Source: a virus (taxonomy: Duplodnaviria > Heunggongvirae > Uroviricota > Caudoviricetes). Taken from it: a stretch of 13,283 nucleotides of DNA. Shown piece by piece: positions 2,742-5,621 of the stretch. Numbering within the stretch: position 1 is the first letter of the stretch; each line of letters begins with the position of its first letter. Location of the stretch: IMG/VR virus record IMGVR_UViG_2695420646_000004; one strand, 5' to 3'. The translations under genes were made by a program, and so were the position numbers. The notes under the pieces are model-generated. The model was not told where the DNA came from, did not search any database, and was given only the letters and a program-made list of their open reading frames with translations.

Positions 2742-2828
2742 ATGAGTGCTGAACTTATTCGGGCAATGGCATTTGCCATTCGTATTGTGGCCATTGCTGT
2801 TCTGGTCTGGGCAATCCGTTGGTGGTGA
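2742..2828 (+). CDS. Candidate micro-ORF D, 28-aa hydrophobic peptide ([28 protein letters not shown])
   Basis: ATG at 2742, stop TGA 2826-2828 one base before the Rz ATG; weak Shine-Dalgarno (AAAAAG). Confidence 0.25.
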
Positions 2829-2829
2829 T

Positions 2830-3324
2830 ATGAACCGTGTTCTGTGTGTGGTGATTATTGTCCTGCTGGTAGCCTGTGGTGTGCTTAGTCTGGGGCTGAA
2901 TCATTACCGCGATAACGCCATCACCTACAAAGCGCAGCGCGATAAAAAAGTCAGTGAGCTGAAACTGGCGAATGCCACTATTACTGACATGCAGCAGCGC
3001 CAGCGAGATGTCGCTGCGCTTGATGCCAGATACACGAAGGAATTAGCCGATGCGAGAGCTGAAAATGAAACTCTGCGCGCTGATGTTGCCGCTGGTCGTA
3101 AGCGCCTGCGGGTCAACGCCACCTGCCCCGGTACCGTGCGTGAAGCCACCGACACCTCCAGCGTGGATAATGCAACCGGCCCCCGACTGGCAGACACCGC
3201 TGAACGGGATTATTTCATCCTCAGAGAACGGTTGATGACAATGCAGAAGCAGCTGGAAGGGGCGCAGGAATATATCCGCACTCAGTGCACTAAGCTGGCT
3301 TTTTATTATCCGGAGGATACATGA
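2830..3324 (+). CDS. Rz: Rz i-spanin (inner-membrane spanin subunit)
   Basis: Translation from ATG 2830 ([40 protein letters not shown]...[34 protein letters not shown]) aligns along its length with remembered lambda Rz: N-terminal TM, coiled-coil, C-terminal Cys. The ORF-track start at 2746 is an upstream GTG extension judged not real. Confidence 0.9.
3050..3235 (+). CDS. Rz1: Rz1 o-spanin (outer-membrane lipoprotein spanin subunit), embedded in Rz in the +1 frame
   Basis: [61 protein letters not shown] has a lipobox (VSAC) and proline-rich mature region closely resembling lambda Rz1; AAGGA Shine-Dalgarno 9 nt upstream. Confidence 0.85.
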
Positions 3325-3545
3325 AGAAATTACGGGTAACCGTAGAACCTTTTCAGGGAACAATTCCGTTCCGTATTTTGCAGCGTGGTCGTGTTCTTGT
3401 TGAAGGTTCGTTCAGTGGTAAATGTACGCAATTACACTCCCGGACCTTTCAGGTGAATGCCACGAATGAAGAGCTAACCGTGGAGTGTACGATGAATGCC
3501 GCTAAATGCCGCATGGTATCCGCTGCATTACAGCCAGTGTGTTGA
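3321..3545 (+). CDS. Hypothetical 74-aa protein, translationally coupled to Rz
   Basis: ATG overlaps the Rz stop (ATGA) with GGAGGA Shine-Dalgarno 5 nt upstream. Cysteine-containing, non-hydrophobic, no recognised motif. Confidence 0.5.
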
Positions 3546-3901
3546 GCGACCTTATTATCCATGCGCGGTATTGTCGCCGTATTCCTGCATTAACAGAGAC
3601 CGCAGCCCGACAGGGAGACTCCTCTGCGCGAGTGTGCGGGGATAATCAAAAACGATACACACCGGGGTTTACCGCGTTAACGGAGCGCGGCGTTGTCCCC
3701 TCATAGTCGCCTGTCCGGTGCGATGGTGGAAGAAGCCGGATGTTTATCACTATTAATTGATGACACAGAAATGGATTCATTGAATTTCAGCACGTTTTTG
3801 TATTCGTGTTATTGAACATCTGTTTATTTTACTTTTAACATATTGATAATAAAAAGAGCTGTAAATCTTTAGATGAGTCGATTTTGTCCGGGGAAGTTCA
3901 A

Positions 3902-4042
3902 ATGGATTTTATGCTGACGGTTTCTGGTGTGGTTATCCTGTCCATTGCTTATACTGCAGATAAATATGGCTGCCATTTGTTATCACGTATTGGCGCTTAT
4001 TGTTCGTTGATGCTGATTTTCTCGTCGCTTTTTTTTGAGTAA
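3902..4042 (+). CDS. Candidate 46-aa hydrophobic peptide ORF in an AT-rich island (MDFMLTVSGVVILSIAYTADKYGCHLLSRIGAYCSLMLIFSSLFFE)
   Basis: ATG at 3902 preceded by GGGGAAG 7-12 nt upstream; two hydrophobic segments. Lies in a markedly AT-rich stretch (about 3740-4100) with promoter-like TTGATA/TTGAAC hexamers upstream. Below the ORF-track size cut-off. Confidence 0.3.
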   Translation: MDFMLTVSGVVILSIAYTADKYGCHLLSRIGAYCSLMLIFSSLFFE

Positions 4043-4174
4043 GTTATATTAATTATAACAAATAATTTTCTGTGTTATTTTTTCAGGCTATCCCGTCAGA
4101 GGGGAAGCCTGTACTGCCGGGGAGCGAATGGAAAACTGATGTGTCCGGTAACTGCGTGTTCTGTGAACACCATG

Positions 4175-4360
4175 TTACTTAATTATGTAATTCATACCCG
4201 AACTCTCTGTTGACAGCCTTCTTCTGCAGGCTTCAATAACCCACGCTGAAAAGTTACTGGACCCTTTATGCTCAAGGGCGATGTTGATCTGTTCAATCAT
4301 GTGATTGGGGAAACGGATATTGCGGGTTGTGGTTCTGCGGGTCCGGTTTTTCGATGACAT
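4175..4360 (-). CDS. Small ribbon-helix-helix-like DNA-binding protein, YlcI/YnfO-like (DUF3950-type as recalled from DLP12/Qin prophages)
   Basis: Minus-strand ORF; preferred start is the internal Met (MSSKNRTRRTTTRNIRFPNHMIEQINIALEHKGSSNFSAWVIEACRRRLSTESSGMNYIIK) with AAGGAA Shine-Dalgarno 7 nt upstream. Basic N-terminus followed by an Arc/CopG-like strand-helix-helix pattern. Family assignment from memory, not searched. Confidence 0.55.
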   Translation of the reverse strand: MSSKNRTRRTTTRNIRFPNHMIEQINIALEHKGSSNFSAWVIEACRRRLSTESSGMNYIIK

Positions 4361-4401
4361 ATTTATTTCCTTTACTGATTGCCATATGACGGGGATTTTA
4401 C

Positions 4402-4767
4402 ATGGCTGAGCTTCGTACACTCCAGAGCAGAATCAAAACTCTGAACACCCGACGGGTGAATATTCTGAAGGGGGAACAGCGTCGTGTCAGTGGCAGTGCA
4501 CGTGTTTCCCTCAAGCGTCATATCTGGCTCAGGGATGCCGGGCAGTGCTGTCTCTGTGGTCGTGTGGTTGACCTCTGTGACAGTGAACTCGATCACCGCA
4601 TTGCACTTCAGTTCGGTGGTGGTAATGAGGAGACGAATCTCTGGACGCTCTGTACCGAATGCCATCGCCAGAAGTCAGTCAGTGAAACGGCGAGTGGTAT
4701 GCCGGACCCGACGCTGCCGGAGGTGTCCGGAGGTCATGGCAGGGCAGACGATATCATCGGACTGTGA
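4402..4767 (+). CDS. HNH endonuclease, phage packaging-associated
   Basis: HNH motif with zinc-binding cysteines (QCCLCGRVVDLCDSELDHRIALQFGGGNEETNLWTLCTECHRQKS). Position immediately upstream of the terminase small subunit is typical of HK97-like cos packaging modules. Confidence 0.85.
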   Translation: MAELRTLQSRIKTLNTRRVNILKGEQRRVSGSARVSLKRHIWLRDAGQCCLCGRVVDLCDSELDHRIALQFGGGNEETNLWTLCTECHRQKSVSETASGMPDPTLPEVSGGHGRADDIIGL

Positions 4768-4857
4768 TCCGCCCCGGGGGGGGGATCATCCGGCGAAAAA
4801 AACGATCGCCACGGACACCGCCCCCCGTCTCATGCAGAGAAAAAATTCCTGTTTCAG

Positions 4858-5057: not shown

Positions 5058-5621
5058 GTGCTGACAACGCAAAAACGAAAATTTGCGCTGGCGCTCATGT
5101 CCGGGAAAAACAAAACAGCGTCAGCCATTGCCGCCGGTTATTCGGCGAAGACCGCCAGGGTTAAAGGCTCGCAGCTGGCAAAAGATCCGGAGGTGCTCGC
5201 GTTTATAGCCCGTAAACAGTGCGAAACGGTGGAGATGGATGAGGTTCCTGTTTACCGGCAGAAAAAATCAGAGCAGGAGGATAAACCCCGTCGCCGTGAG
5301 GTGGCTGCAATACCACAGCCGGACGAAAACAATCCGGAGATGCCTCCGCCCGCGGTGATATCTCATGGTATTGAATATATGGAGGATGGTCTTCCCGATC
5401 CGGTGAAAGCTATGGGGCAGATCCTGGTGGAAAACCTGATAATTGACCCGAAACTGGCACTGGATGCGGCCTGGCGACTGGCGCAGTTCACACACCATAA
5501 AAAAGGCGATGCCGGTAAAAAATCGGCAAAAGGTGATGCCGCGAAAAAAGCGGCTAACCGTTTTGCGGTGCCACCACCTCCCCGACTGGTGGTGAATAAC
5601 CAGAATGAGGAAAGCGGATGA
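5058..5621 (+). CDS. Terminase small subunit (Terminase_2-type N-terminal HTH)
   Basis: N-terminal LTTQKRKFALALMSGKNKTASAIAAGYSAKTARVKGSQL matches the small-terminase DNA-binding motif (LTxKQxxF...AGYSxKTA); GTG start with GGGAGGAGG Shine-Dalgarno; 3' end overlaps the TerL start (ATGA). Confidence 0.8.
   Translation: MLTTQKRKFALALMSGKNKTASAIAAGYSAKTARVKGSQLAKDPEVLAFIARKQCETVEMDEVPVYRQKKSEQEDKPRRREVAAIPQPDENNPEMPPPAVISHGIEYMEDGLPDPVKAMGQILVENLIIDPKLALDAAWRLAQFTHHKKGDAGKKSAKGDAAKKAANRFAVPPPPRLVVNNQNEESG

Follow-up and report, generated by a model that had tools for sequence, protein, structure and literature searches.

The 13,283-nucleotide stretch of DNA analyzed here (the window; IMG/VR virus record IMGVR_UViG_2695420646_000004, Caudoviricetes) is the late region of a lambdoid (lambda-like) Escherichia coli prophage, and it carries, between the Rz lysis gene and the packaging genes, an AT-rich island of ~430 bp (positions 3746-4174, no strand) that is most likely a small moron cassette specifying a small protein of the inner membrane. 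The candidate gene is an open reading frame (ORF) of 46 codons and a stop on the plus strand (3902-4042), which would specify an orphan hydrophobic peptide (MDFMLTVSGVVILSIAYTADKYGCHLLSRIGAYCSLMLIFSSLFFE); it converges on a minus-strand gene of the ylcI/ynfO family (4175-4360), whose 3' end abuts the island. An earlier note on this DNA had seen in the two genes horizontally acquired cargo reminiscent of a toxin/regulator or exclusion module. We conclude that the island is true accessory cargo and that it is better described as an ordinary moron than as a toxin/regulator module, since the neighboring YlcI is a standard backbone gene and not the partner of the peptide. Overall, the explanation we favor is a moron carrying a translated micro-protein, to which we give somewhat better than even credence.

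The island differs sharply in base composition from its surroundings, as the earlier note had described: its GC content is 36.6%, compared with a mean of 55.3% (S.D. 4.0, minimum 43.4%) for the other 429-nt segments of the window, a difference corresponding to z = -4.7. Among 5426 complete E. coli genomes, 734 carry the island, at 788 places in total and with at least 95% identity in all but one. Of 80 loci, 76 have a conserved GC-rich block upstream of the island, ylcI follows the island in 75 of 76, and the same site in related and sibling phages is empty, lacks the island, or is differently filled. The view that the island is horizontally acquired is thus borne out by sibling phages in which the site is vacant or holds unrelated inserts. 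With respect to the features by which morons are recognized, the island is an optional insert (the distance from the block to ylcI is 3 (empty), 173, ~430, ~610, or 840-906 bp across phages) and has a deviant base composition; for a promoter and a terminator of its own, we find only hexamer pairs matching at 8 of 12 positions and a downstream hairpin without a clear T-tract. The peptide of the island belongs to no described family.

The left anchor of the insertion site is the GC-rich block (3563-3745, 183 nt, plus strand), a conserved non-coding segment with a GC content of 0.58 that the window shares with locus L003 at 95% identity, where the adjoining island is only 61-82% identical. The block occurs in more than 120 IMG/VR contigs (120 were retrieved through an invariant 19-mer of the block) and also in 933W-type Stx2 phages, where it is located directly upstream of terS, the gene for the small terminase subunit. 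Its right end is always GGTGGAAGAAnCnGGA, and in the IMG/VR contigs at least 10 unrelated sequences follow; the island is thus one of the alternative occupants of a hypervariable slot for cargo, located, in lambdoid prophages of E. coli, at the right genome end between the block and the ylcI core (or cos, where ylcI is absent). In 12 loci (e.g. L019), the slot is empty, and the ylcI stop codon is 3 bp from the block. Elsewhere, it is filled by an AT-rich spacer of 173 bp that has a terminator on the minus strand (phage 2851/Stx1 type), by the present ~430-bp island (25 loci and one with the divergent allele described below), by a ~610-bp cassette with a TonB_C lipoprotein gene, or by inserts of 840-906 bp, and in some phages, cos and terS come directly after the block and ylcI is absent. 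The ~610-bp cassette is the commonest alternative (30 of 118 IMG/VR loci); its lipoprotein of 113 amino acids has a TonB C-terminal domain (Pfam, 1.3e-14) and is encoded 135-476 nt past the block end in locus L020. In the phage 2851 spacer (L004, 2690-2730), the minus strand has a good intrinsic terminator, ACTGCTGTG..CACGGCAGT and then T7, which would end the ylcI transcript and has no equivalent in the present island. In a decayed prophage (L011, 3141-3500; L012, 362-720), a deletion joins the right part of the island to the middle of terS; this prophage has lost ylcI, the HNH endonuclease gene, cos, and half of terS, and its peptide ORF, of the allele with 89% amino acid identity described below, is intact. 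Two groups of small RNAs (sRNAs) were considered as slot occupants and rejected on position: the anti-sRNAs of enterohemorrhagic E. coli reported by Tree et al. map to the PR'/Q moron site, and the Pas sRNAs are encoded in the Q/sialate esterase/holin-lysozyme region.

Within the island, the ORF at 3902-4042 is called by the Prokaryotic Genome Annotation Pipeline (PGAP) as hypothetical protein WP_000347013.1 in identical and near-identical loci, and its hydropathy profile shows two hydrophobic segments (grand average of hydropathy (GRAVY) 1.1), so that the description of a 46-amino acid ORF with two such segments in the earlier note stands. The AlphaFold2 model has helices at residues 2-21 and 25-44 with a YGC turn between them (mean predicted local distance difference test (pLDDT) score of 85), and the peptide is accordingly predicted to be a two-helix hairpin. 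A Shine-Dalgarno-like GGGG (3890-3893, plus strand) is located 8 nt before the ATG, is kept in L003 and L012, and reads GAGG in one copy; the Shine-Dalgarno sequence that had been called good is thus present but of only moderate strength.

The peptide exists as three alleles that are 71-89% identical. The second allele (P0007; loci L011-L013) has 89% amino acid identity to the peptide of the window, and the third, divergent allele (L003 and L051) has 71% amino acid and ~77% nucleotide identity. All three keep an open frame with its start codon and its GGGG Shine-Dalgarno sequence, and the motif ADKYG..LLSRIGAYC..LIFSSLFF is invariant among them. The Nei-Gojobori dN/dS ratio against the divergent allele is 0.27-0.31, compared with 0.59-0.79 for the two alternative frames, which contain stops. 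When nucleotide identity is broken down by segment, the ORF (82%) and a 36-nt run upstream of it (97%) are the best-conserved parts of the island, the rest of which is 61-72% identical; further, the ORF has no insertions or deletions save in a terminal T-run, and the spacer has five gap columns. This T-run is a slippage-prone T8 homopolymer in the last codons of the ORF (4026-4033, plus strand), and T7, T8, and T9 variants among the copies produce the C termini ...FLSKLY, ...FFE, and ...FF. Intact peptide copies number 30 of 33; one of the others has an internal frameshift, and two differ only by T8 slippage or loss of the stop codon. A lack of conservation in homologous islands, which the earlier note had named as grounds for giving up its reading, is therefore not what we observe. 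Taken as a comparison of sequences, these results suggest purifying selection on the peptide ORF, with modest statistical support (permutation p of ~0.03-0.13). An intrinsic terminator at the T8 run was also considered and was rejected, as two of the three alleles have no adjacent hairpin.

By sequence comparison, the peptide is an orphan confined to E. coli. It matched nothing in Pfam, PHROG, NCBIfam, or PADLOC, and none of the holin, antiholin, and spanin models of Pfam and PHROG. A word search of 5.8 billion protein clusters returned the peptide only in near-identical E. coli clusters, and a profile hidden Markov model search of 1.84 billion representatives returned only self matches, fragments, and two spurious repeat proteins. 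Two records were found by tblastn of the peptide against phage records. In the GTDB species genomes, the peptide pattern was not found, and the 23-nt invariant run had one chance match, in a metagenome-assembled genome of the Flavobacteriales. A peptide-profile search of IMG/VR gave 80 loci that are all at least 98% identical and therefore yielded no new alleles. Foldseek comparison of the peptide model with viral structures returned generic helical hairpins only (E ≥ 0.76), and a search of the supplementary data published with the Sakai RIBOseq study did not turn up the sequence. The homology search suggested in the earlier note thus finds no homologue of the peptide outside E. coli.

The conserved run upstream of the ORF (3821-3856, plus strand) is AT-rich and near-invariant, being 97-100% identical between alleles in surroundings that are 67-72% identical, and is a candidate promoter or protein-binding region. 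Two weak sigma-70 candidates overlap here on the plus strand, TTGAAC-18-TAACAT (3812-3841) and TTTATT-16-GATAAT (3823-3850); each matches at 8 of 12 positions, which is under the 9/12 threshold of the scan, and each is kept in the window, L003, and L012. Inside the run, on the minus strand, lies a match to the IHF core consensus TATCAATATGTTA (WATCAANNNNTTR; 3836-3848), the sole one in the 13.3-kb window; because 59 of 200 shuffles (~30%) give at least one match per window, this site is suggestive only. We also note a 9/12 promoter-like site, TTTACA-17-TATGTT (3865-3837, minus strand), that overlaps the invariant run, points left into the GC-rich block, and is only partly conserved in L003. 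Downstream of the ORF, an imperfect 14-bp inverted repeat over the ylcI stop codon (4148-4178, no strand) is a candidate bidirectional terminator or stabilizer: the scan flags it as terminator-like on the plus strand, and its fold z scores are -2.5 (plus strand) and -3.2 (minus strand), but it has no clear T-tract and is not part of what is conserved in L003.

Several points weigh against a translated micro-protein. First, an ORF of at least 46 codons occurs in 53% of shuffled versions of the island; the presence of the ORF alone therefore means nothing, and only its conservation argues for a gene. Second, when the same 24 substitutions were re-placed at random in the ORF with their types preserved, 13% of the permutations gave 13 or fewer amino acid changes and no stop, and 3.4% were, in addition, as hydropathy-conservative as the observed set (p = 0.034). 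Third, the comparison has low power because there are only three alleles and the family is confined to E. coli. Fourth, hydrophobic sequences yield confident AlphaFold2 helices whether they are real proteins or not. Further, the hexamer scan detected 3 sites where 3.0 are expected, and none on the plus strand at 9/12, so the promoter-like hexamers reported previously are present at a frequency no higher than chance; no convincing terminator was found downstream of the peptide ORF; and any physiological role of the peptide is inferred by analogy with other morons.

These points bear most directly on the alternative that survives best, although we consider it unlikely, namely that the island is functional non-coding DNA and the ORF is a by-product of AT-rich sequence. 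Under this explanation, the island might be the 3' untranslated region (UTR) or termination zone of ylcI, an architectural or silencing element bound by IHF or H-NS, or an sRNA locus. The frequency of comparable ORFs in shuffles and the modest codon-level selection signal are both in keeping with it, as is the fact that the best-conserved element of the island is the non-coding 36-nt run with its perfect IHF core. In addition, the AT-rich spacer of the phage 2851 type holds only a minus-strand terminator after ylcI, and ybcW and ylcI are listed as a convergent overlapping transcript pair in K-12 (PMC12288877). However, a by-product of base composition would not account well for a frame, start codon, and Shine-Dalgarno sequence kept in three alleles while the other two frames contain stops, for replacements that conserve hydropathy, or for the restriction of indels in the ORF to the terminal T-run when the spacer has several gap columns. 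Nor does an RNA-level function find a counterpart in the Rfam scan of the whole window, block and island included, which returned no match at E ≤ 1; the folds of the putative transcripts are unremarkable.

The gene on which the peptide ORF converges forms the right anchor of the slot. It encodes a ribbon-helix-helix (RHH)-like protein of the DUF3950 family, which matches Pfam PF13132 (DUF3950; 8.4e-20, 70.8 bits, cutoff 25) and NCBIfam NF041551 (YlcI_YnfO_N; 35.1 bits, cutoff 30). The earlier identification of a YlcI/YnfO-like minus-strand gene at this place is therefore correct, although the product has 61 amino acids and not 62; likewise, the distance to the start of the HNH gene, given as ~40 bp, is 41 bp (ATG at 4360 and ATG at 4402). 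DNA resembling ylcI occurs at 9568 places in 4184 of the 5426 E. coli genomes. Only ~8% of these copies adjoin the island, and ~92% are without the peptide because ylcI is found at 9568 places and the island at 788. In lambda, DLP12 (ylcI), Qin (ynfO), and phage 2851, the gene is the last one before cos/terminase and is antisense to the late operon, and its neighbors in those phages, either YbcW/lambdap79 (soluble, 68 amino acids) or YdfO, are unrelated. Residues 1-49 of YlcI are almost invariant across contexts, whatever the cargo, whereas the C-terminal tails differ between slot types, and the tail STESSGMNYIIK is specific to the present cassette type. The core being invariant and the tail cassette-dependent, the recombination boundary of the slot therefore lies inside ylcI, near codon 50. 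We conclude that ylcI is a backbone gene, present at this genome end in most lambdoid prophages, and that YlcI is not a dedicated partner of the peptide.

Further observations concern YlcI itself. The variable tail corresponds to codons 50-61 (window positions 4175-4213). The lambda homologue is an intact, unannotated ORF of 64 amino acids (NC_001416.1, 48109-48303, minus strand; L008, 2710-2904) located ~200 bp from the right cohesive end; its product is identical to DLP12 YlcI, and the ORF converges on lambdap79 (= YbcW). Two candidate ylcI promoters can be inferred in the window, TGGAGT-18-TAAAAT at or inside the 5' end of HNH (4424-4395, minus strand, 8/12) and CTGACA-17-CAGAAT inside HNH (4490-4462, minus strand, 9/12). 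An operator shared by the HNH-type and lambda-type regions upstream of ylcI was sought and not found, and no motif is common to the island and the regions upstream of ylcI. An RHH fold for YlcI is plausible: the protein matches a HicB-like PHROG at E = 0.003, and the AlphaFold2 monomer has an extended N-terminal arm and helices at residues 19-32 and 34-56 (pLDDT 69). Foldseek comparison of this model with the PDB gave nothing significant (E ≥ 4), a PDB sequence search with the YlcI profile gave no match, and no RHH family of Pfam matched at E ≤ 10. In the literature examined, YlcI, YnfO, and DUF3950 receive incidental mentions only (an annotation label and the listing of the ybcW-ylcI pair).

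These data bear on the proposal that the peptide and YlcI are a functional pair, in which expression of a toxic or exclusion peptide would depend on the RHH protein or on convergent transcription from ylcI (an excludon). We regard such a pair as improbable. It is true that the genes are convergent and 132 nt apart with only the imperfect hairpin at 4148-4178, and no strong terminator, between them, that the analogous ybcW-ylcI pair has been reported as a convergent excludon (PMC12288877), that the peptide is next to ylcI in 75 of 76 loci, and that YlcI is RHH-like, as are many antitoxins and repressors. However, the association runs one way only: the great majority of ylcI copies have no peptide, ylcI also stands beside the empty slot, and its core does not change with the cargo. 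Neither a motif linking the island to the regions upstream of ylcI nor an operator common to the HNH and lambda types was detected, PADLOC has no match for either protein (for YlcI, no family at E ≤ 1), and the peptide belongs to no toxin family. Of the properties that define type II toxin-antitoxin systems, a co-oriented operon and consistent co-occurrence, we observe neither, the genes being convergent and ylcI mostly without the peptide. The toxin or exclusion module put forward in the earlier note is thus not supported, given the disparity between the numbers of ylcI and island loci, the convergent arrangement without an operon, and the lack of a PADLOC model, a toxin family, or a conserved antisense promoter. 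Convergent transcription of the peptide ORF and ylcI is likely and would be a property of the slot rather than of its cargo. A more elaborate idea, which seems to us just as doubtful as the pair, is that the block, the variable plus-strand cargo, and the convergent ylcI, a conserved layout directly ahead of cos and the packaging genes, constitute a cargo dock with an insulator and that the peptide represents a new class of micro-protein excluding superinfecting phage at the inner membrane. Leftward transcription of ylcI in the lysogen, together with the RHH protein, could then keep read-through from the cargo promoter out of HNH and terminase, whose products might if expressed cleave chromosomal cos, and expression of the cargo and of YlcI could be mutually exclusive (again, an excludon).

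In the explanation we favor, a moron with a translated micro-protein, the ORF at 3902-4042 would be translated into a two-helix hairpin located in the inner membrane. Because the ORF is read in the same direction as the Q-dependent late operon and is placed between Rz and the packaging genes, the peptide would be made at least during late lytic transcription, by read-through from pR'. It would probably also be made in lysogens from a weak AT-rich promoter of its own, perhaps modulated by IHF, and the two conserved sigma-70 candidates and the IHF core in the invariant run suggest such an independent lysogen promoter with possible IHF modulation. As a lysogenic-conversion factor, the peptide might bind or perturb a membrane component, for example by blocking the entry of superinfecting phage DNA or by modulating a host membrane protein. 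That the peptide is instead a late-only accessory of lysis or packaging, expressed by read-through of the late operon (e.g. to time holin or spanin action) and without a role in the lysogen, strikes us as quite unlikely. Such a function would fit an ORF that has the orientation of the late genes, lies directly downstream of Rz/Rz1, and has weak promoter evidence, but the peptide is dispensable, as close relatives with the same lysis and packaging genes do not have it; it travels with two packaging modules, the HNH/HK97 type and the lambda Nu1 type (L003); it is kept intact in the decayed prophage that has no ylcI, HNH, cos, or complete terS; and it matches no holin or lysis family. The least probable alternative, a type I toxin-antitoxin system in which an antisense RNA encoded in cis would repress a small hydrophobic toxin, is brought to mind by a strongly hydrophobic peptide of <60 amino acids (GRAVY 1.1) in the AT-rich island of a prophage and by a ylcI transcript that could read antisense through the ORF, but it sits poorly with the failure to find an antisense promoter conserved across the peptide alleles or an Rfam antitoxin RNA, with a predicted 5' UTR that is short and lacks strong structure, and with a peptide that is modeled as two helices without a charged tail and matches no toxin model of Pfam, NCBIfam, or PHROG.

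The block may act as a structured element in the late transcript or as an anchor for recombination, and no reading frame is maintained consistently among its variants. Compared with column shuffles, its consensus fold on the plus strand reaches z = -3.2 (2 of 200) with a structure conservation index (SCI) of 0.69; the minus-strand values are z = -1.1 and an SCI of 0.41. Seventeen of 46 predicted pairs vary on one side only with a standard pair kept, mostly G-U (C/U opposite G or A/G opposite U), a double-sided change is seen in only one of the 46, and the single-sequence folds are unremarkable. These observations point, weakly, to an RNA element by which the cargo slot would be marked in the late transcript, one reason for caution being that the alignment tested had also supplied the structure. 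We also note that a short hairpin at ~3673-3695 in the block is swapped for two different self-complementary sequences in divergent variants.

The surroundings of the slot are those of a lambdoid late region. A megablast search with positions 3550-4450 detected 100% identical copies in 3 E. coli chromosomes, and many strains, among them O103, O26, and O111, have copies at ~97% identity. The RefSeq annotation of locus L002 was transferred to window coordinates because this locus matches the query at 100%. The resulting gene order is sialate esterase, holin, lysozyme, small ORFs, Rz, an ORF of 74 codons, the 46-amino acid hypothetical protein, YlcI/YnfO (minus strand), HNH endonuclease, TerS, TerL, and capsid, and the placement of the island between the lysis and packaging modules in the earlier note agrees with this order, from Rz (2746-3324; Pfam Phage_lysis, 2.9e-50) to HNH, TerS, and TerL. 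The ORF after Rz (3321-3545, 74 amino acids) matches PHROG 2571, a family of unknown function, over positions 100-172 of 291 only and may be a truncated remnant; it has no PADLOC family at E ≤ 1. The HNH endonuclease gene (4402-4767, plus strand; Pfam HNH, 2e-06; PHROG 589, 1.3e-42) is the first gene of an HK97-type packaging module, and terS (5058-5621) lies downstream of it. The gap between the two is the expected place of an HK97-type cos site, and within it, directly 3' of the HNH stop codon (4767-4790), we note a C4-G10 run, ccccgggggggggg.

If the peptide is made, it is one more uncharacterized prophage micro-protein, present in ~13% of complete E. coli genomes, and a candidate for lysogenic conversion in important pathogens, as the carriers of the island include O157:H7 (e.g. 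86-24, NZ_CP038408.1, 2379596-2380023), O104:H4 (e.g. NZ_CP022086.2, 1800080-1800510), O103, O26, and O111 strains. For annotation, the lesson is that YlcI/YnfO is a lambdoid backbone gene whose neighbors are not to be read as its functional partners, and the slot between the GC-rich block and ylcI is a defined place in which to seek cargo.

Among known small proteins, the peptide resembles the type I toxins Hok, TisB, Ldr, and ZorO and small E. coli membrane proteins in being short, very hydrophobic, prophage-encoded, and restricted to one species. Toxins of the Hok, TisB, and Ldr type consist of a single helix with a charged tail. In contrast, the model of the peptide is a hairpin of two helices that has no charged tail; its locus yielded no antisense RNA gene, and the peptide matches no toxin family. 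Morons are described as independent transcription units spread by horizontal transfer (PMC3594210), and the island is like the lambda bor and HK97 gp15 morons in several respects: it is extra DNA found at one site in some sibling phages, its base composition is deviant, and it holds a small stand-alone gene between modules, with a product predicted here to be envelope-associated. It differs from a classical moron in that a flanking promoter and terminator are not demonstrable; further, at 46 amino acids, the peptide is far smaller than the bor product (97 amino acids, 294 nt) and has no homology to any characterized moron product. The gene at 4175-4360 is a bona fide YlcI/YnfO family member, placed and oriented just like its counterparts in lambda, DLP12, Qin, and phage 2851, and its C-terminal tail is what is particular to the present cassette type. 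The closest parallel in arrangement is the ybcW/lambdap79-ylcI pair of lambda and DLP12, whose architecture is identical, with a small plus-strand ORF converging on ylcI before cos/terminase. By inspection, YbcW (68 amino acids, soluble, no Pfam match) is unlike the 46-amino acid peptide, and the occurrence of two such different products beside the same ylcI shows that the plus-strand partner of ylcI is interchangeable.

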